From Phormidesmis sp. (GTDB lineage Bacteria; Cyanobacteriota; Cyanobacteriia; Phormidesmidales; Phormidesmidaceae), in NCBI GenBank assembly GCA_050042985.1, contig JBHJIY010000237.1, positions 1 to 11,094 of the forward strand: a DNA stretch of 11,094 nucleotides. The letters run 5' to 3'. Every line of letters begins with the position of its first letter. The first letter of the stretch is position 1. Both the position numbers and the translations under genes were made by a program. The notes under the pieces were generated by a model. It was given only the letters and a program-made list of their open reading frames with translations, was not told the DNA's origin and ran no database searches. Shown in pieces: positions 484 to 10,538 of the stretch.

Positions 484-581
484 TTTTATGTATTCGGGGT
501 TTTATCTATCCTCTATCATTGGCAGATAAATGACATGATGTGTGTGCTTTATGAGCAAAAGTTGTGATGCAGAAATTGTGA
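484..581. promoter_or_regulatory. Divergent intergenic region between moaA (-) and cbiD (+); presumed to hold both promoters
   Basis: 98-nt AT-rich spacer between two divergently oriented start codons, with -10-like hexamers (TATCAT, TAAATG). No element was identified specifically. It is too short for a cobalamin riboswitch and no Moco-RNA-like structure is recognisable. Confidence 0.25.
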
Positions 582-1682
582 ATGAGTGAGCCAAGGCGCG
601 GTTATACCTTACCTGTGTTTGCCTGTGCGGGCGCGATCGCAGCTCTCTACCAACTCAAAAGCAAAACCGCCTTAGACGCAGTTTCCCTCCATCTCATCGA
701 ACCAAACGAAACGGTAGACATTCCCATAGAGCAATCCTCTTTGCTTTCTAAAAATGAAGCGCTTGCCATCACGCGCAGTGATCCTGGCGACAATTTGGAT
801 TTGACGCGTAATACCCCAATTTGGTCAGTTGTCCGTTGGGCCAATTCAGAACAAGCTGAACAAATCGTGCTAGAAGGCGGGGAAGGTATTGGGCGACATG
901 CCAGCGGCGATGCCATTTATGCGTATGCCCAGAAGCTGATGATGAGTGCGTTGTCGGCTCAGCTGAGCGACGGCCAAAAGATTCGAGTGAAGATTATTTT
1001 GCCGGAGGGTCGGCGTTTGGCTTTGCGCACTTCTAACTCGGCCTTTGGGGTGGTGGATGGTCTTTCACTGCTAGGTACAAGCGGGATTGCGCAGCCTTTG
1101 AGCGCGCCAGGTCAACTAGCAGAGTATCGAGAAACGCTGAAGCAGAAGGCTGCTGACTATAAGGATCTGGTATTCTGTCTGGGAGAAAATGGTTTAGATT
1201 TGGCCCTGAAGTCAGGGATTGATCCAGACCGACGGCTGAAGACAGCGAATTGGATTGGCCCTCTGTTAGTAAAGGCTGGAGAACTCGATGTAGAGTCCAT
1301 TTTGCTGTTTGGTTATCACGGCAAGCTGATTAAGCTGGCGGGAGGCATTTTTCATACGCATCATCATGTGGCGGATGCACGGCAGGAAATTATGGCGGCC
1401 TATTGTGCGCAGGCAGGGTTGCAGACGGTGGTGGTTCAGCAGGTGTTAGAGAGTCCGACGACAGAAGCGGCTTTGCAGGTGTTACGAGGGCTAGATCAAG
1501 CTGGTGACACGGACTGGACTTCGTGGGTGTATGGCATTTTGGCGGAGCGGATTGATGAGCGATCGCGCGCCTACATCCGTACCCATACCGAAAGAACGGT
1601 TAAAGTTGGCAGCGTTCTATTCGATCGCAGTAGACAGATTATTACGACTAGTACTCAAGGAAACACTTTGTTGCCTTCTTAA
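582..1682 (+). CDS. cbiD: Cobalt-precorrin-5B (C1)-methyltransferase CbiD (cobalamin biosynthesis)
   Basis: 366 aa. Conserved CbiD blocks are present: RRGYTLPVFACAGAIAAL (cf. GYTTGxCAxAAAKAA), LEGGEGIGRHASGD (TGGEGIG), LLGTSGIAQPLS (GTTGIVxPMS) and FGYHGKLIKLAGGIFHTHHHVADARQEI ([23 protein letters not shown]). Confidence 0.88.
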   Translation: MSEPRRGYTLPVFACAGAIAALYQLKSKTALDAVSLHLIEPNETVDIPIEQSSLLSKNEALAITRSDPGDNLDLTRNTPIWSVVRWANSEQAEQIVLEGGEGIGRHASGDAIYAYAQKLMMSALSAQLSDGQKIRVKIILPEGRRLALRTSNSAFGVVDGLSLLGTSGIAQPLSAPGQLAEYRETLKQKAADYKDLVFCLGENGLDLALKSGIDPDRRLKTANWIGPLLVKAGELDVESILLFGYHGKLIKLAGGIFHTHHHVADARQEIMAAYCAQAGLQTVVVQQVLESPTTEAALQVLRGLDQAGDTDWTSWVYGILAERIDERSRAYIRTHTERTVKVGSVLFDRSRQIITTSTQGNTLLPS

Positions 1683-2062: not shown

Positions 2063-3700
2063 GTGACCTCACAAACTTCCACATCACAACCCAAAACTGC
2101 CGATACCCCTGACCTTGGTGTTGCAGCAGGATCCTCCCCTTTGAACCGTCAAATGCTGGCGATTCTAGACTTTGGCTCACAGTACTCTGAACTGATCGCC
2201 CGTCGCATCCGCGAAACCGAAGTGTATTCGGAGGTTCTTTCTTACCGCACAACGGCGGAACAGCTTCGAAAGCTAAATCCAAAAGGGATTATTCTCTCGG
2301 GTGGCCCTAGCTCTGTATACGACAAGGGTGCACCTGCTTGTGATCCCGAGATTTGGAATTTGGGGATTCCGGTACTGGGCGTTTGCTACGGTATGCAGCT
2401 GATGGTGAAGCAGCTGGGTGGCCAGGTTGAGCGGGCAGAGCGCGGCGAGTACGGTAAAGCGGCATTGTTGATCGATGAAGTTGCTGGCTTGCTAAGTGAG
2501 GTAGAAGAAGCTTCGACGATGTGGATGAGTCACGGTGATTCGGTGACTCAGCTACCCGATGGATTTACGGTGTTGGCGCATACGGAGAATACGCCGCAGG
2601 CGGCGATCGCACATCCACAAAAGCGATTCTACGGCGTCCAGTTTCATCCAGAAGTCGTTCACTCAAAAGGTGGCAGCGCTCTAATACGCAACTTCGTGTA
2701 CGACGTGTGTGAGTGTGAACCCACTTGGACTACTGAAGCTTTTGTTGAAGAAGCGATTCGCGAAGTACGTGCCAAAGTTGGCGATCAGCGCGTTTTACTA
2801 GCGCTCTCTGGTGGCGTAGATTCCTCCACCTTGGCCTTCCTTTTGCACAAGGCGATAGGCGACCAGCTTACCTGCATGTTTATCGATCAAGGGTTCATGC
2901 GTAAGCGCGAGCCTGAGCGGTTAATCGAGATCTTCGATAAGCGTTTTCACATCAATGTGGAATATATCAATGCGGGCGATCGCTTTCTCGAAAAGGTCAA
3001 AGGCGTCACCGACCCCGAGGAAAAGCGAAAAATCATCGGCCACGAATTCATTCGCGTCTTTGAAGAAGAATCCACTCGCCTGGGTCCCTTCGATTACCTA
3101 GCGCAAGGCACTCTATATCCAGACGTTATCGAGTCTGCGGATACGAATGTAGATCCTCAAACAGGTGAAAAAGTCGCCGTCAAAATCAAAAGTCATCACA
3201 ACGTGGGTGGCTTACCAAAAGATTTACGATTTAAGCTAATTGAGCCGCTGCGAAAGCTTTTCAAAGACGAAGTACGCAAGGTAGGAACGGCAGTGAACTT
3301 GCCAGATGACATTGTGAGACGTCATCCTTTCCCCGGTCCTGGTCTGGCGATTCGCATTTTGGGTGAAGTGACTCCAGAGCGGCTACGTATCTTGCGTGAA
3401 GCGGACTATATTATCCGCCAAGAAATTCGCCGTAGTGATAGCTATCATGATTTCTGGCAGGCTTTTGGTGTGCTGCTACCGGTGCGCAGCGTGGGTGTCA
3501 TGGGTGACCAGCGCACGTATGCATATCCGATTGTGCTGCGCCTAGTGAGCAGTGAAGATGGGATGACAGCGGACTGGTCGCGTGCACCGTACGAACTGCT
3601 AGAGAGTATCTCAAACCGTGTGGTTAATGAGGTAGACGGTGTGAATCGTGTGGTTTATGACATTACTTCTAAGCCGCCTGGCACTATTGAGTGGGAATAG
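2063..3700 (+). CDS. guaA: GMP synthase (glutamine-hydrolysing)
   Basis: 545 aa. N-terminal glutamine amidotransferase domain ([29 protein letters not shown]), PP-loop ATP pyrophosphatase motif SGGVDSS, and the typical C-terminus PPGTIEWE. The GTG start at 2063 is preceded by AAGGA 5 nt upstream. An alternative ATG start at 2153 ([11 protein letters not shown]) would remove a 30-aa N-terminal extension. Confidence 0.93.
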
Positions 3701-3870
3701 CCCCGTCTGGAAATGGGTATTCATCTGCTGTATCTGTCCATAGTCCGTAGCCACCTTTCGTGGTTTACGGCACAATAGACCTACAGTAGCGGTGTACTTT
3801 TCGCTTCCTGGCTTTCCCGCTTCTTTCTTGTTTACCAGTATTCTTAGTCAATTTAGCTCTTCCCCCGCCA

Positions 3871-4274
3871 TGAACTCTGACTCATTGCTCGAACTCATCC
3901 AAAAAGGCTATCGCGTCACGCTAGGTGCGGCTTCCACTGCTGTAGAAGCGGTGCAAGATCCTCAGCGCACGGCTGATGAATTTTCGGCAATTGGTACAGA
4001 CTGGGAGCGCCTGGCAGACAAGCTTGAAGTGCGCGGTGCTCTCACAGAAAAAGAAGCCCGTGACTTTGTAGAAGGCGTAACGAGCCAAATGCCCGAGCCT
4101 TTTCGCAGTGCCTCGTCTCCTTTTACTTCAGGTGAGCCTGCTGAACCGCCTACCGTGACGACGGTTGCGACGCCTGTAGTGGATACTGAGCTGCAAGCAG
4201 AAGTGACGTCTTTGACTGAAGAGTTGATTGCGATCCGTCAGGAAATCGAAGCGTTGAAAAACAAAGACGCATAA
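3871..4274 (+). CDS. Small phasin-family-like protein (COG3937-like N-terminus) with Pro/Thr-rich linker and C-terminal coiled-coil; hypothetical
   Basis: The track ORF is 3792-4274, but its first 26 aa (MYFSLPGFPASFLFTSIL...) look non-coding. The likely start is the ATG at 3871 (MNSDSLLELIQKGYRVTLGAASTAVEAVQD...). The N-terminal LIQKGYxxxLGAASxAVE block resembles cyanobacterial 'phasin family' proteins, and the C-terminus (TEELIAIRQEIEALKNK) is coiled-coil-like. The family assignment is from memory, not a search. Confidence 0.5.
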
Positions 4275-4388: not shown

Positions 4389-4763
4389 TCAAGCAACTGC
4401 ATATTCCGTTTGTTCACGTACTTCAACCGGCTGAAATGCTAAAACGATCCGCTCTTTAGGTACACCTGCTGCGACTAACTCCTTTGTGATGCTGTCTTCA
4501 ATTCCGTCGTAGTGCATCCAAATCTTACTGTCGCGGATTTCAGCATGGACGATGCAACCGTGAACTCGGCGATGACCTTCCCACCCTTCGTTCATCAGCA
4601 TGAAATGGCTTCTATCTTCGCTGGTGACAACATAGGTTTTGATGTCTCCATAGCGATAAGGTATGTCAGCGTAGTACTGAAGGCTACTCCTGATTGCTTC
4701 TCGCCACTGCTCCAACGTATCTACTGTGACATCTGTCAGATGAGTATCTATTGAGGTATCCAT
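4389..4763 (-). CDS. xisI: XisI family protein (fdxN-element excision controlling factor homolog)
   Basis: 124 aa. The YRYGDIKTYVVTSEDRSHFMLMNEGWEGHRRVHGCIVHAEIRDSKIWMHYDGIEDSITKELVAAGVPKERIVLAF block matches the XisI family (Pfam XisI; Anabaena PCC 7120 XisI). Its start overlaps the xisH stop by 16 nt, the usual xisH-xisI operon arrangement. Confidence 0.85.
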   Translation of the reverse strand: MDTSIDTHLTDVTVDTLEQWREAIRSSLQYYADIPYRYGDIKTYVVTSEDRSHFMLMNEGWEGHRRVHGCIVHAEIRDSKIWMHYDGIEDSITKELVAAGVPKERIVLAFQPVEVREQTEYAVA

Positions 4764-5167
4764 CGAATAATTTCCTCAGTTTTAGGATCAAACACAATAA
4801 TTCTAAAGTCAGGTTCTTCTAAAAGGAGTTGACCTGCTTCCTCAAGAAAAATGGTATCAAACGTCGTTGAACTTACTGCCAAATACAAAATACGATCTGG
4901 CTCTCGACGCTGAAGTGTCCTGGCGTACATGAAGAATTGCCCCCACGCATTTTCTAGATCGTTGAGCGGAGAAGGGCTAGAAAAACTTTTGATTTCGACC
5001 GCAATCTTGTCTGCGCCTTTTTCAGCTGCGATGAGCTTTTCAGCGCCAAGGTCTATGTGGACAGAGCGTAAGCCCAACTTTAGCGTTAGCGGATCGTCTG
5101 TGATCGTCCAGCCATCTCTGATGAGAGCTGCCTTCACAGTATCATGATGAAAATCCTTGGCTGGCAT
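4748..5167 (-). CDS. xisH: XisH family protein (endonuclease-fold; fdxN-element excision controlling factor homolog)
   Basis: 139 aa. MPAKDFHHDTVKAALIRDGWTITDDPLTLK...DLGAEKLIAAEKGADKIAVEIKSF is the characteristic XisH N-terminus (Pfam XisH). It lies immediately upstream of xisI and overlaps it. Confidence 0.85.
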   Translation of the reverse strand: MPAKDFHHDTVKAALIRDGWTITDDPLTLKLGLRSVHIDLGAEKLIAAEKGADKIAVEIKSFSSPSPLNDLENAWGQFFMYARTLQRREPDRILYLAVSSTTFDTIFLEEAGQLLLEEPDFRIIVFDPKTEEIIRWIPQ

Positions 5168-5225: not shown

Positions 5226-6002
5226 TTAGGCGATCGCACTTCCCATCCCACCTTCAGGCGGTACATCTTGCCAACGGCCTTGACCCACTGCGCGGATAGC
5301 CTGCTTCAGAGAAACATCGCCTGTGTATAGTGCCTTACCAACGATCACACCAGACACGCCAGATGTTACAAGGCTCAAAAGGCTGAGTAAGTCTGAGACT
5401 GAACTAACGCCGCCCGATGCAATCACAGGCGTATCAATAGCGGTGGCTAACTCTCTAAGCGCTTCTAAGTTTGGTCCTTTCATGGTGCCATCGCGCTTGA
5501 TATCGGTGTAGATAATCTCTGCCGCGCCCATGTCACCCATCCGTTTCGCGAGTTCTATAGCCATTACTTCAGAGGTCTCTAGCCAGCCGCGAGTTGCCAC
5601 TTTGCCTTCGCGGGCATCGATACCCACGATGATTTGGCCAGGAAATTTTTCGCACAGCTGACCGACCAAGGCTGGATTTTCAACGGCGACAGTGCCTAAA
5701 ATTGCATACTGTACGCCGAGCTCGAATAGGGCACTTACTCGTTCAGCATCACGTAAGCCACCGCCGACTTCAATCGGGATATCTATTGCGTCTGCGATCG
5801 CTCTAATCGCTTGCCAGTTTTCTGGCTTCCCAGCTTTCGCGCCATCCAAATCAACGAGGTGTAAACGGGTCGCACCCTCAGCCGCCCATTGCTGTGCGAC
5901 TTCTACAGGGTTGTCGTTGAATATTTGAGACTGCTCGTAGTCTCCCTGAAACAGCCGTACGCAGCGGCCTTCTAACAGGTCAATAGCGGGGATGACATCC
6001 AT
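5226..6002 (-). CDS. hisA: 1-(5-phosphoribosyl)-5-[(5-phosphoribosylamino)methylideneamino]imidazole-4-carboxamide isomerase HisA
   Basis: 258 aa. The [23 protein letters not shown]-terminus and the (beta/alpha)8 phosphate-binding motifs (GGGLRD, ASGGVSS) identify it as HisA rather than HisF. Confidence 0.92.
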
Positions 6003-6080: not shown

Positions 6081-6899
6081 CTAGAATGAGTTGAAGCTTT
6101 CTAGCAGCAGTTGAATTCTGTCACCGTCTGGAGCATTGGGGTGCGATCGCAAATACCCCTTCAAGTCATGCCGTGCCAGCTCGTAATTCTGCATTCGGTG
6201 ATGCAAAAGGCCGCGATCGCGCATTTGCCCAGCCGCTTCCGGCATTAATATCAGCAGCTTATCCAGCACGCTCACCGCCTCAGCATCGGCTTCCTGCTGA
6301 ATGTAAATTGCCTTCAAATTCATCAGCATCCTAGCCAAGAAAGGCTTCGGCATTACTCCGCTCAAAAACTCAGATTTCCACTGTGAGTGCGGAAACAGCT
6401 GATGAAATTTTTGCTTACAGTCTGCCAAGAAGAGCACTTCGCCCTGGTGAAATGGATCGACAAATACCTCCATTTCTTCGATGACGGGCCGCACCAAAAA
6501 ATGACCTGGCATCCCCACACCGACCATAGGAAAACGTAGCCGATGAGCAATCTCCAAATACACCAGTGACAGCGAAATTGGAATGCCGATGCGCCGGTCG
6601 ATAACGCAGTTGAGATGGCTGTTGTCAGCGCTGTAGTAGTCCTTGATATTACCGGTGAACTTGAGATCGGTGAAGAGGTAGTCGTTGATGGCTTGAATGA
6701 CTTTGAGCGGATAGCGCCGAGCGGGAAGGCGCGATCGCACCGCAGAGGCCATATCGTCCAGTGCTTCCAAATAACGGCTTGGATCCATGTCCCAGTATTC
6801 TTCCTGGGCAATGTATAGTGCTGCGGCTGCTAGGTTAATTCGCCCGTCGGCTTTTTGAACTTCCTGATAAAAACGTTGCCCAGCAGGGGAAAGTCTCAT
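6081..6899 (-). CDS. SirB1-like / YchA (UPF0162) family protein: transglutaminase-like domain plus C-terminal TPR-like region
   Basis: The track ORF is 6081-6920 (279 aa) starting at a TTG. That TTG lies inside the 6920-6944 hairpin, so the ATG at 6897-6899 (MRLSPAGQRFYQEV...) is the more plausible start. The IDRRIGIPISLSLVYLEIAHRLRFPMVGVGMPGHFLVRP...VFVDPFHQGEV core is typical of the transglutaminase-like superfamily found in SirB1-type proteins. The C-terminal approx. 80 aa look TPR/helical. Confidence 0.65.
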   Translation of the reverse strand: MRLSPAGQRFYQEVQKADGRINLAAAALYIAQEEYWDMDPSRYLEALDDMASAVRSRLPARRYPLKVIQAINDYLFTDLKFTGNIKDYYSADNSHLNCVIDRRIGIPISLSLVYLEIAHRLRFPMVGVGMPGHFLVRPVIEEMEVFVDPFHQGEVLFLADCKQKFHQLFPHSQWKSEFLSGVMPKPFLARMLMNLKAIYIQQEADAEAVSVLDKLLILMPEAAGQMRDRGLLHHRMQNYELARHDLKGYLRSHPNAPDGDRIQLLLESFNSF

Positions 6900-6989: not shown

Positions 6990-8279
6990 CTAGCTGTCAG
7001 AGACTGAGCCTTCTGGCAGTGCAGTGGTGCCGTTGCCATTTGCGGTACTGTTCAAACCGCCGCTCAATCCATTGAGCGCACTTGCTAAATCTACGCCCGA
7101 AGCCTGCTTTAGCTGTGTCATAAAGGCGGTGGCTTGCGTGGCTAAGTTGCCAGATTGCGTATCCACTACAGTCACATTCTGTACGGCCACATCAGGTACT
7201 GTAGCGGTCAATGTTTTTAATAGTACTTCCAGTTTTTGTAGCAGGAAAATGTCGCGAGCGCTGTCTCCTGCTGAGACCCAAGATTCGGCCAAGCTACGGG
7301 TACCTTCGGCTTGTGCTTTACCTTCTTCAATGATGGTGGAAGCGCTACCTTTTGCCTGTGCGATCGCTCTCTTACACTCCGCCTCAGCTGGCGCAATCAC
7401 ATCCGCTTTCAGCTGCTCCATAATTTGCTTAATCCGCTCCTCCTGCACAGGCACATCTGCTTGGATTCGAGCCAGGGAAGCTGCAATTTCAGCCTCTGCT
7501 TCTGCTACGACTGCTGCGCGCATGGTCAAAGCGTCCTGTGTTCTTTGCTCTGCGGCTGCTTGAGAAATGCCGATATCTCGTTCTAGGCGACGCACAGCAG
7601 TGATTTTTTCGTTTTCAGCGGTTTGCACAGCGGATTCGGCCTTCGCCTCTGCTTCTGCAATTCGCGCATCTCGCTGTAAATCGGCCTGCTGCTTGCGACC
7701 AATTGAGTCGAGGTAAAGTACATCGTCTGAGATGTTTTGAATTTGCAGCGTATCCAGCACTAAACCCAGCTTTTCCAAATCCTCTTCGGCTTCATCTAGC
7801 AAGCTTTTAGCAAATGCTGTTTTATCTTCGTTGACTTGCTCTGGTGTCAGGCTAGCGAGCACACCACGCAAATTACCTTCTAGAGTTTCCTTTGCGATTG
7901 TCTCAATTTCTTTACGAGGTTTCCCTAGCAAACGTTCAATCGCGTTGTGAATGGTAGGTTCCTCACCTGCGATTTTGATGTTAGCCACGCCATCTACATG
8001 TAGCGGGATGCCACCTTTTGAGTACGCGTTCGATACTCTCAGCTCGATGATCATGTTCGTAAGATTCATTTTCATCACTTTTTCGAGCAGTGGCGTACGT
8101 AGGCTGCTACCGCCTTTCACTAGCCGATAGCCCACGTTGCGACCTTCAGTCTTGCGGGTGCTACCGGCAAAGATAAGCACTTCGTTAGGCTGACAAATGT
8201 AGTAAAGGTTTTTGACAATGAGGGCAATTAGGCCACTAGCGCCACCACCTAAAACCAAAAACGCGAGCAAAAAAGGCAT
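6990..8279 (-). CDS. Flotillin-like SPFH/band-7 membrane protein (YqiK/FloT type), paralog 1
   Basis: 429 aa. N-terminal TM segment (FLLAFLVLGGGASGLIALIV) followed by an SPFH core (NEVLIFAG...TLEGNLRGVLASLTPEQVNEDK...LDTLQIQNISDDVLYLDSIGRKQ). A long Ala/Glu-rich coiled-coil region (EAEAEIAASLARIQ) follows, then the flotillin C-terminal block (DIFLLQKLEVL). GGAGA lies about 13 nt upstream of the ATG. Confidence 0.88.
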   Translation of the reverse strand: MPFLLAFLVLGGGASGLIALIVKNLYYICQPNEVLIFAGSTRKTEGRNVGYRLVKGGSSLRTPLLEKVMKMNLTNMIIELRVSNAYSKGGIPLHVDGVANIKIAGEEPTIHNAIERLLGKPRKEIETIAKETLEGNLRGVLASLTPEQVNEDKTAFAKSLLDEAEEDLEKLGLVLDTLQIQNISDDVLYLDSIGRKQQADLQRDARIAEAEAKAESAVQTAENEKITAVRRLERDIGISQAAAEQRTQDALTMRAAVVAEAEAEIAASLARIQADVPVQEERIKQIMEQLKADVIAPAEAECKRAIAQAKGSASTIIEEGKAQAEGTRSLAESWVSAGDSARDIFLLQKLEVLLKTLTATVPDVAVQNVTVVDTQSGNLATQATAFMTQLKQASGVDLASALNGLSGGLNSTANGNGTTALPEGSVSDS

Positions 8280-8349: not shown

Positions 8350-8886
8350 TTAGGCTGGTGTTCCAGAAGCTGCGATCGCCGCAGTGCTAGAACCATTCAG
8401 CTTATTCATAGCAGCAGTTTTGGCGCTTAGTGTGCCAACCACATCGATCCCAAGCGTGGCTTCTACCTGAGTCAAAAACTGCTTGACGATTTCGGGATAC
8501 ACGTTGGCTAGGCTTGCGATCGCTTTTCCATCTCCGTTATCAATCACATTCACATTCCCAAGCTGCACACGGTGAGGAATCGCCGCCGCTTCCTGCAAAA
8601 TCATTTCAACCTGCTGTAGCAAAAAGATTTGACTGGCGTCTGCGCCTGTCTCTTTCCAGACCTGCGCCAGCATTTCGTTCACTTGCGCTGCTGCTTTGGC
8701 ATTCTCAGCCGTGCCAGCCGCTGCCCCTTTCGCATGCAGTGCTTGTGCTTCTCGGCGAGCCTCGGCGGGTAGTACTTCGTCGGCTTGCAGTCGCAAACGC
8801 TCTAGCTTAGCCCTTGTTGCTTGTAGCTGCTGCTCAGCTCTCGCTCTGGCCTCTTTCGCCGCTGCCGATGTGCGCTCTTCCTCAGA
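8350..8886 (-). pseudogene. C-terminal remainder of flotillin paralog 2, in the same reading frame directly downstream of the in-frame TAA
   Basis: 8887 minus 8350 is 537 nt (179 codons), so this ORF is in the same frame as 8887-9783. Translation continues ...DQRS*SEEERTSAAAKEARARAEQQLQATRAKLERLRLQADEVL...QIFLLQQVEMILQEAAAIPHRVQLGNVNVIDNG. This is colinear with the paralog-1 C-terminus (DIFLLQKLEVLLKTLTATVPDVAVQNVTVVDTQ). The track ORF 8350-8796 begins at an internal TTG. Confidence 0.6.
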
Positions 8887-9783
8887 TTATGATCGTTGAT
8901 CCAGCGCAGCTTTATTCTTGCTTAGTTCGTTGGTCTTTTCTTGAATAATCGTCAGCGCCTGAGACTTGAACATTTCAGCGCGCTTTTGACAGTCGGCTTC
9001 TATTCGCTCAGCTTCACCAATGGCGACCGCTTCGGCAATTTCAGCATCGCGGACAATTTTGGCAATCTGCCGACGGCCAATGGAGCTAAGGTAGTCCACA
9101 TCGTCTGTGACGCTCTGCACTTTCAGTGTATCGAGCTGAAGGCCTAGTTTGTTCAAGTCACGGGCTACATCTTCTGCGATGCGCTCGGCAAAGTTGAGTC
9201 GATCTTCATTGACTTGTTCGGGTGTGAGGTTGGCGACGACTCCACGCAAGTTCCCTTCTAGTGTTTCGCGTACCACCCGCTTAATTTCGGATCGATTGCG
9301 ACCCAAGAATCTTTCGATGGCGTTGCCGACAATTCCTTTGTTGCTAGAGACTTTTACGTTTGCGATCGCCTGAATATTCAGCGGCGTTCCTCCTTTCGCG
9401 TAGGAATTACTCACCTCTACCGGAATCGGCATGGTGGTCATGTCCATCTTTTCCACCCGCTCAATCACAGGTGTTACAAAAGCCCTACCGCCAAATACAA
9501 CTCGGTACCCTACCTCTTTGCCGTTTGGTTGCTTGTACTGTCGTCCCGAAATGATCAAAATCTCATTGGGTTTGCAAATCCGTAAGCAGGCTTTGAGCAG
9601 AGCAATGATACTGGCTAAAACAATCAGCGTTACACCAATAGCACCCACGCTAAAAACGCCGACAGCGGCAGGTGGTGGTGCTGTTGTTTGGCCAATAGGT
9701 CCGCTCGCTTGTGCCAGCACAATAGACTGCTCAGCGGGTAACTGCTCCGCAAAATTCTCTGACTCAGCAGAATGTTTACTCAT
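8887..9783 (-). CDS. Flotillin-like SPFH/band-7 protein, paralog 2, N-terminal 298 codons ending at an in-frame TAA
   Basis: AAGGAG lies 8 nt upstream of the ATG at 9781-9783. The 45-aa N-terminal extension is followed by a TM segment (VGVFSVGAIGVTLIVLASIIALL) and an SPFH core colinear with paralog 1 (NEILIISG...TLEGNLRGVVANLTPEQVNEDR...LDTLKVQSVTDDVDYLSSIGRRQ). The ORF is closed by TAA (complement of 8887-8889) in the middle of the Glu/Ala-rich coiled-coil region. Confidence 0.75.
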   Translation of the reverse strand: MSKHSAESENFAEQLPAEQSIVLAQASGPIGQTTAPPPAAVGVFSVGAIGVTLIVLASIIALLKACLRICKPNEILIISGRQYKQPNGKEVGYRVVFGGRAFVTPVIERVEKMDMTTMPIPVEVSNSYAKGGTPLNIQAIANVKVSSNKGIVGNAIERFLGRNRSEIKRVVRETLEGNLRGVVANLTPEQVNEDRLNFAERIAEDVARDLNKLGLQLDTLKVQSVTDDVDYLSSIGRRQIAKIVRDAEIAEAVAIGEAERIEADCQKRAEMFKSQALTIIQEKTNELSKNKAALDQRS

Positions 9784-9842: not shown

Positions 9843-10538
9843 CTATGTCTCAGCTTCGTTAAGCGCGTGTTTGTCGGAAACGACCCAGAGTCGATTTTGG
9901 CTGCGTCCTACAACGAGAATGCGATCGCCTGTCTGAAAGCTCGTTGTCTCATCTGTGCAGGCAATCAAATGCAGCGTACTGCCGCCCACTTCCAAGAAAA
10001 CTTTGCCCTTACTGTTTTGGTCAAAAGGCAGTTCTACCGTGCCAGATAATCCCGAAAAGTCTTCATTGCGAACCAGGCTATCGACTTTACGGTGTTTGAG
10101 ATAGCGCAGGATGCTGACGAGTGTGCCGCCGCAGATAATGCCCATCGTCAGTGCGATCGCAAAAATCACCAGCCAACCTAGTTCAGGCCCTATCACGCCC
10201 ATCACTAGACCTGTCAGGCCAAAAAAGAACCCACCAAACGTCCAAAACTTAAAGCTTGTCAGAATCGACAGCCAACTAGGAATCCGCTTTCGCTTGCGAG
10301 CCGAAGACCTCAGCAGTTCTACATCTGTATCGATCTGAACATCGCCATCAAAGTCAGCGTCTAGGTCTGCATCAAAGTCAGCATCTAGATCCGCATCGAC
10401 GTCAAAATCTGCATCCGCGTCTATATCAAAATCCGCATCTGCATCGACATCCATCCCATCAAGCAGGTCCCCCCCAACGAGGGATAGGGCGACAAAGGCA
10501 CCGCCAATCGTCAAACAAAACCAATAAACTGACTGCAC
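9843..10538 (-). CDS. NfeD-like (YuaF-type, short form) membrane protein with C-terminal OB-fold; partner of SPFH/flotillin proteins
   Basis: 231 aa. TM1 (VYWFCLTIGGAFVALSLVGG) is followed by an acidic repeat loop, a basic patch RKRKR, two further TM helices and a C-terminal beta-rich block (GKVFLEVGGSTLHLIACTDE...FQTGDRILVVGRSQNRLWVV). That block is typical of the NfeD C-terminal OB-fold domain. It is the first gene of the flotillin operon, as in yuaF-floT arrangements. Confidence 0.78.
   Translation of the reverse strand: MQSVYWFCLTIGGAFVALSLVGGDLLDGMDVDADADFDIDADADFDVDADLDADFDADLDADFDGDVQIDTDVELLRSSARKRKRIPSWLSILTSFKFWTFGGFFFGLTGLVMGVIGPELGWLVIFAIALTMGIICGGTLVSILRYLKHRKVDSLVRNEDFSGLSGTVELPFDQNSKGKVFLEVGGSTLHLIACTDETTSFQTGDRILVVGRSQNRLWVVSDKHALNEAET
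10343..10462. repeat. Tandem 24-nt repeat (about 5 units) inside nfeD, encoding an Asp-rich 8-aa repeat (DADADFDI/DADADFDV/DADLDADF/DADLDADF)
   Basis: Units: cgccatcaaagtcagcgtctaggt, ctgcatcaaagtcagcatctagat, ccgcatcgacgtcaaaatctgcat, ccgcgtctatatcaaaatccgcat, ctgcatcgacatccatcccatcaa. Translated on the minus strand they give DVDADADFDIDADADFDVDADLDADFDADLDADFDGD. Confidence 0.7.

Follow-up and report, generated by a model that had tools for sequence, protein, structure and literature searches.

An in-frame stop codon in a flotillin gene of Phormidesmis is probably part of a local error cluster in one metagenomic assembly

Does the TAA codon that interrupts the second of two tandem flotillin genes in a Phormidesmis contig belong to the organism or to the assembly? 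The sequence analysed here (the window) is a complete 11,094-bp contig of a Phormidesmis metagenome-assembled genome (MAG), in which flotillin paralog 2 (Flot2) carries an in-frame stop next to an intact paralog 1 (Flot1). The TAA is present in the deposited contig. An initial annotation had offered three explanations, namely a nonsense mutation of very recent date, an error of sequencing or assembly, or readthrough of the stop. Comparison with conspecific assemblies and orthologs favours the error, leaves the recent mutation as a possible cause, and speaks against readthrough, given that the stop is not conserved and stands in the context TAA-T. The features of the locus are listed in Table 1.

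Table 1. Features of the flotillin locus (window coordinates)
Feature	Position	Strand	Remarks
Flot1, flotillin paralog 1, 429 aa, intact	6990..8279	-	protein identical on 10 other contigs
Flot2, flotillin paralog 2	8350..9783	-	477 codons; translation, Pfam Band_7
148-aa ORF	8350..8796	-	Flot2 codons 330-477; annotated as hypothetical protein, P0129/MGD1867540.1
Internal in-frame TAA, codon 299	8887..8889	-	AAA (Lys) in every conspecific contig
35-nt patch with all five window-private Flot2 substitutions	8889..8923	.	compared with conspecific contigs
231-aa membrane protein, Asp-rich repeat	9843..10538	-	first gene of the three-gene cluster

Translation of the minus strand from 9783 to 8350 confirmed that Flot2 is a single frame of 477 sense codons, cut by one internal TAA (the complement of 8887-8889) and closed by a terminal TAA. 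Gene calling yields two ORFs in this common frame, one of 298 aa with an ATG start (8887..9783) and one of 148 aa. The initial annotation was right that both share a frame in which the TAA is the sole interruption, but not that the TAA alone parts them: 30 sense codons (8797-8886) also lie between the stop and the start of the 148-aa ORF, an internal TTG that is the codon of the invariant Leu330. In the NCBI annotation the halves appear as a 'flotillin family protein' (MGD1867541.1; P0090, 298 aa) and a 'hypothetical protein' (MGD1867540.1).

The protein encoded by the full frame has a membrane segment at its N-terminus, followed by an SPFH/Band 7 domain and a coiled-coil tail rich in Glu and Ala. 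Residues 70-252 match the Pfam family Band_7 (PF01145) with 92.7 bits (cut-off 23.6; E = 3.7e-26), a score above the gathering threshold that places Flot2 in the SPFH/Band 7 superfamily. Flot2 and paralog 1 are 39% identical over 424 aa (E = 1e-85), and the alignment continues straight across the stop, which bears out the colinearity of the two paralogs proposed earlier. A phmmer search against the PDB matched flotillin-1 (9l3g_A, E = 3e-35, residues 70-328) and flotillin-2 (E = 1e-34); the human flotillin-1/2 cryo-EM chains 9l3g and 9bq2 together match residues 70-334 (E = 3e-35). Flot2 thus has the SPFH and coiled-coil homology of the flotillin family, with a post-stop region that is colinear with paralog 1 and all orthologs. 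The FloT equivalog model of NCBIfam (NF058507) aligned to residues 51-287 (E = 1e-39), with 133.5 bits for the 298-aa fragment and 136.6 bits for the intact protein (P0122). Because the latter score is far under the cut-off of 700, Flot2 is, as judged from its sequence, a flotillin-family protein and no FloT ortholog or equivalog.

The order 231-261-aa protein, Flot2, Flot1 is conserved in eight of the contigs compared (L001, L002 and L164-L169), as part of a wider conserved order of membrane protein, Flot2, Flot1, transglutaminase-like/TPR protein and hisA. In tblastn searches, spans of 1.75-2.05 kb for the 1.35-kb gene suggested insertions in L006, L019, L025, L113, L101, L120, L125 and L144. 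For L006, L019, L025 and L113 insertions were rejected, since matches to Flot2 and partial matches to the adjacent Flot1 had been joined; it follows that the tandem pair is conserved there. NfeD genes adjoin bacterial flotillin genes, and the 231-aa protein may be NfeD-like, as suggested solely by where it lies and by how its C-terminus looks; it matched no family in Pfam or NCBIfam, NfeD models included. Its acidic repeat, DADADFD(I/V)DAD... (approximately 10257-10530), differs in length among conspecific contigs: L167 lacks 24 nt (10365-10388) of the Asp-rich repeat region, and L166 has many substitutions and small indels at approximately 10257-10530.

Two further features of the contig were noted. 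An overlapping XisH/XisI pair (4389-5167, minus strand; Pfam E = 2.5e-51 and 1.8e-35) separates hisA from the guaA side of the contig. All conspecific contigs that cover this stretch have the pair, and L001 and L002, the nearest other lineages, lack it there, which makes it a lineage-specific insertion. A conserved ORF at 3792-4274 (plus strand), 160 aa from a GTG in the window, is called with 134 aa in the conspecific contigs; a segment at its C-terminus resembles a coiled coil, and no family matched it significantly.

The conspecific set comprised eleven contigs from at least 10 samples or assemblies. Ten of them (L164-L173) came from the ENA assemblies ERZ4903314, ERZ4903328, ERZ4903308, ERZ1740052, ERZ1740056, ERZ1740067, ERZ1740070, ERZ23487348, ERZ23487739 and ERZ23487988, and one (L178) from the Logan assembly of SRR3401489. 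Where aligned, L164-L173 are 98.9-99.9% identical to the window at the nucleotide level. The exact Flot1 protein of the window was found on 10 other contigs and the exact HisA on 6, and the 477-aa flotillin P0122 is encoded on contigs of up to 230,814 bp, the same maximum as for the contigs of the neighbouring proteins. The conspecific ENA and Logan contigs were retrieved via exact look-ups of neighbouring proteins and were missed by both exact-DNA scans. The 23-mer TCTGAGGAAGAGCGCACATCGGC, located just downstream of the stop, had no exact match in two public DNA collections (genome and metagenome contigs); since these collections missed conspecific contigs that exist, a missing match there is weak evidence of absence. 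An exact look-up of the 298-aa product returned no encoding contig on record.

Codon 299 is AAA (Lys) in all eleven conspecific contigs: at base 8889 the window has A where 10/10 of the loci L164-L173 have T, and L178 likewise reads AAA. The gene is covered in full by eight contigs (L164-L169, L172 and L178), each of which encodes the intact 477-aa protein. This protein, P0122, differs from the conceptual translation of the window at only four of 477 residues (288, 290, 293 and 299), so that a full-length version of about 477 aa, whose existence had been put in question, is encoded by an intact gene in other assemblies. A sense codon in other data had been named in advance as the outcome that would turn the stop into a sequencing error; its presence therefore favours the error reading, within public assemblies.

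The stop does not stand alone. Within Flot2 the window differs from the unanimous bases of the loci L164-L173 (10/10) at positions 8889, 8906, 8915, 8922 and 8923. On the coding strand these differences read CTG>CTA (L287, silent), CGC>AGC (R288S), ATT>AAT (I290N), GAG>GCG (E293A) and AAA>TAA (K299*), that is, four transversions and one transition, of which four are nonsynonymous (the stop included) and one is synonymous. Between 3645 and 11094, comparison with the same ten loci revealed no window-private difference outside the patch, and hence none downstream of the stop; the chance that all five private changes fall within 35 of 7450 nt is approximately 2e-9. Their plus-strand spacing of 17, 9, 7 and 1 nt tightens toward 8923, which is suggestive only but fits a deteriorating read end. 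A contig-wide quality problem was rejected, as the six other genes of the contig (Flot1, upstream protein, TGase-like, HisA, GuaA and orf160) have 0-3 scattered unique residues and no stops.

The orthologs tell the same story at the protein level. Among the best 120 matches, the other proteins have 405-510 aa, and 117 of them have at least 430 aa. In alignments of 23 orthologs and of 117 full-length orthologs, codon 299 encodes Lys in the large majority and is never a stop; in the ortholog DNA it is AAA or AAG, or CGN (Arg) in some distant relatives. The proposed comparison of the orthologous codon thus found a sense codon everywhere, with AAA in the 11 conspecific contigs and Lys or Arg in about 150 orthologs. 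The converse expectation, that the orthologs would all stop here and have a diverged downstream region, was contradicted: none stops, and the downstream region is conserved and colinear. In the 117 orthologs, 241 columns are at least 90% conserved, and the window departs from them solely through R288S, I290N and E293A, all of which lie no more than 11 codons upstream of K299*; R288 is invariant, and I290 and E293 are more than 90% conserved. Neither S288, N290, A293 nor a stop at 299 occurs in any of the 117-151 orthologs. The residues unique to the window are these four at 288-299 and one in the variable C-terminal tail, a result confirmed in a second check with 151 orthologs; four unique residues in 12 of 441 columns have a chance probability of approximately 5e-5.

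As far as the compared sequences tell, the stop and its four companions are private to one assembly while all others agree, tightly clustered on the scale of a read end, and unfiltered by selection. It is the confinement of five such changes, the stop among them, to 35 nt that favours the error reading: we consider it probable that the stop is part of a local error cluster that was built into the assembly, for which we infer a technical cause. The TAA at codon 299 would then most likely be absent from the genome of the organism, and the real gene would be an ordinary functional flotillin, second in the cluster small membrane protein, flotillin 2, flotillin 1. Five base-call errors in 35 nt would most plausibly derive from the poor-quality end of a read where coverage was very low, and the annotation pipeline would then have called two genes, one for a 298-aa 'flotillin family protein' and one for a 148-aa 'hypothetical protein'. 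Counting against an error is the cleanness of the remaining 11-kb contig, which has no other error-like cluster, and consensus assemblers normally remove single-read errors unless coverage is very low.

Clusters of private substitutions in eleven sequences, the window and L164-L173, form two classes, long (95-272 nt) and short (21-64 nt); their positions are given in window coordinates. Long patches change chiefly third codon positions and are synonymous and transition-rich; examples are window 663-873 (cbiD), L166 10257-10528, L169 1577-1671 and L170 9103-9196, where 18/18 changes are synonymous. They look like real strain mosaicism or chimeric joins of co-occurring strains. In the window, the stretch 549-873, which comprises intergenic sequence and the 5' part of cbiD (582..1682), has 25 private substitutions relative to L164, L166 and L167; within the cbiD part, 15/23 are at third codon positions and 16/23 are transitions. 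Its appearance is that of recombination with a related strain, or of a chimeric join to one, and not that of an error cluster.

Short patches, by contrast with the long ones, are transversion-rich, mostly nonsynonymous and at times stop-creating. In L170, the patch equivalent to window 5814-5877 has nine substitutions in 64 nt (2 transitions, 7 transversions) at a coverage of 1.97x; among them is L47*, which splits hisA (3205-3981 in the numbering of L170) into genes of 46 aa and 207 aa. In kind, this lesion matches the flotillin stop. In the transglutaminase-like gene of L173 (coverage 3.16x), six substitutions in 44 nt (6681-6724) are all transversions, and the same contig has a second short patch at 8437-8457. 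A weaker example is L172 9022-9043 (coverage 4.49x), with 2 transitions and 3 transversions, 4/5 of them synonymous. Short patches were absent from all three contigs with a stated coverage of at least 6x (L164, L165 and L167) and also from L168, whose coverage is not given. In the sister contigs the equivalent clusters track low coverage, which points to a technical cause. Five of the six transversions in L173 6681-6724 are directed toward T on the plus strand of the window, and this cluster, too, resembles an error.

A genuine recent mutation would give the same picture in a single assembly. One event of error-prone repair or synthesis in the sampled strain could have introduced all five substitutions, K299* included. 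Flotillin 2 would then have a newly arisen allele, null or truncated, and would be an incipient pseudogene with the adjacent intact paralog as a buffer. The stop does stand in the deposited consensus, the contig has no second cluster that resembles an error, and a tandem paralog of 39% identity could cover the loss of Flot2. The dN/dS ratio of the downstream segment, whose determination had been proposed, was 0.015-0.05 and does not differ from that of the upstream part (0.016-0.033), both relative to the two nearest other lineages; the intact pair L001/L002 gave 0.02-0.037. There is thus no relaxed constraint after the stop, as would mark a pseudogene, although the nearest other lineage is already at a dS of 1 or more, so that the ratio is blind to a very young lesion and does not by itself tell an error from a young mutation; a downstream part free of decay is just what such a lesion would leave. 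Independent sequences of the same lineage do not share the lesion either, since 11/11 conspecific contigs from at least 10 samples or assemblies lack the allele, and a mutational event that placed five substitutions in 35 nt while sparing the 7.4 kb around them would be exceptional. With the equivalent clusters in the sister contigs following low coverage and pointing to a technical cause, we regard a real clustered mutation as rather unlikely. If it were true, the strain would live with an SPFH-only stub ending at residue 298 beside an intact paralog, a natural experiment on the need for the coiled coil in flotillin assembly.

A function for the stop appears highly improbable, whether through readthrough or recoding that yields the full-length protein or through a split in which the 298-aa product acts as a cap-like or dominant-negative partner of the intact flotillin. 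All that speaks for it is the reading frame, intact on both sides of the stop, and the general notion that coiled coils mediate the oligomerisation of SPFH proteins, with which the match to the flotillin-1/2 cage structures 9l3g and 9bq2 agrees. Nevertheless, the stop is conserved in no conspecific contig or ortholog, and its context is not leaky: UAA-U is an efficient terminator, the strongest in established work on E. coli. TAA also ends the frames of Flot2 itself, HisA, CbiD and orf160 in the window, so that the codon is not reassigned. Readthrough thus finds neither a conserved stop nor a leaky context or reassignment. A functional restart was likewise rejected: the 30 codons after the stop contain no start codon, the first in-frame start is the TTG of the conserved Leu330, 31 codons past the stop, and R288S, I290N and E293A alter conserved coiled-coil residues but create no new ribosome-binding site or start. 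The suggestion of a dominant-negative or cap-like partner found no support, as no truncated form occurs in any other assembly or ortholog, and we give hardly any credence to a stub that is selected for such a role.

We consider it likewise highly improbable that the patch came from a related strain in the same samples, as a short recombination tract or a chimeric join; such patches exist in the population (window 549-873; L166, L169 and L170) and a lineage of approximately 80% identity co-occurs in the same samples (L001 in ERZ4903314, L137 in ERZ1740067), but the variant bases and residues are found in 0 of about 160 orthologous sequences, the co-occurring lineage included, and real mosaic patches are mostly synonymous and transition-rich, whereas 4/5 changes in the Flot2 patch are nonsynonymous and 4/5 are transversions. 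Gene conversion from paralog 1 or another donor was rejected because no donor sequence was found: neither the window nor the fetched loci contain a second copy of the patch or its variant k-mers. L042, L044 and L080 do contain a 12-mer of the patch that excludes the stop, a chance recurrence. A diversity-generating retroelement was also rejected, as the changes are not restricted to adenine, no template repeat was found and the allele is private to one assembly.

The main value of these results is one of data quality. A conserved two-flotillin cluster of a marine filamentous cyanobacterium appears in one public MAG as a truncated flotillin and a separate hypothetical protein. Nothing in the comparison is evidence of a truncated regulatory flotillin, of readthrough or of a pseudogene, and two intact flotillin paralogs should be assigned to the organism. 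The approach offers a check of split genes that does not require reads, in which exact-sequence neighbours are located in other assemblies and the lesion is then examined for being private, clustered and blind to selection. It also exposed the identical type of artefact splitting hisA in a sister contig of 2x coverage.

The proposed error shares with the assembly-error split genes of MAGs and draft genomes a disabling change that is private to one assembly, a conserved gene, and halves that are annotated separately. The usual artefact of this kind is a homopolymer indel that shifts the frame; unlike it, the Flot2 patch is a cluster of substitutions without an indel.

The gene itself resembles FloT (YuaG) of Bacillus subtilis in its N-terminal membrane anchor, its SPFH/Band 7 domain and its long Glu/Ala-rich coiled-coil C-terminus, and also in its location directly downstream of a gene for a small membrane protein. 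In the B. subtilis operon, FloT lies downstream of the small membrane-protein gene of its NfeD partner YuaF. The Phormidesmis locus differs in having two diverged flotillin paralogs in tandem and an upstream protein that matches no NfeD model. Flot2 is homologous to eukaryotic flotillin-1 and flotillin-2 (9l3g, 9bq2) over residues 70-334, across the SPFH domain and the initial part of the coiled coil, and it differs from them as a bacterial protein with a transmembrane N-terminus. Codon 299 lies within the region aligned to the flotillin coiled coil, so that a real truncation would delete the assembly region. Like the flotillin-1/flotillin-2 complex, the Phormidesmis locus comprises two paralogs, which probably co-assemble.
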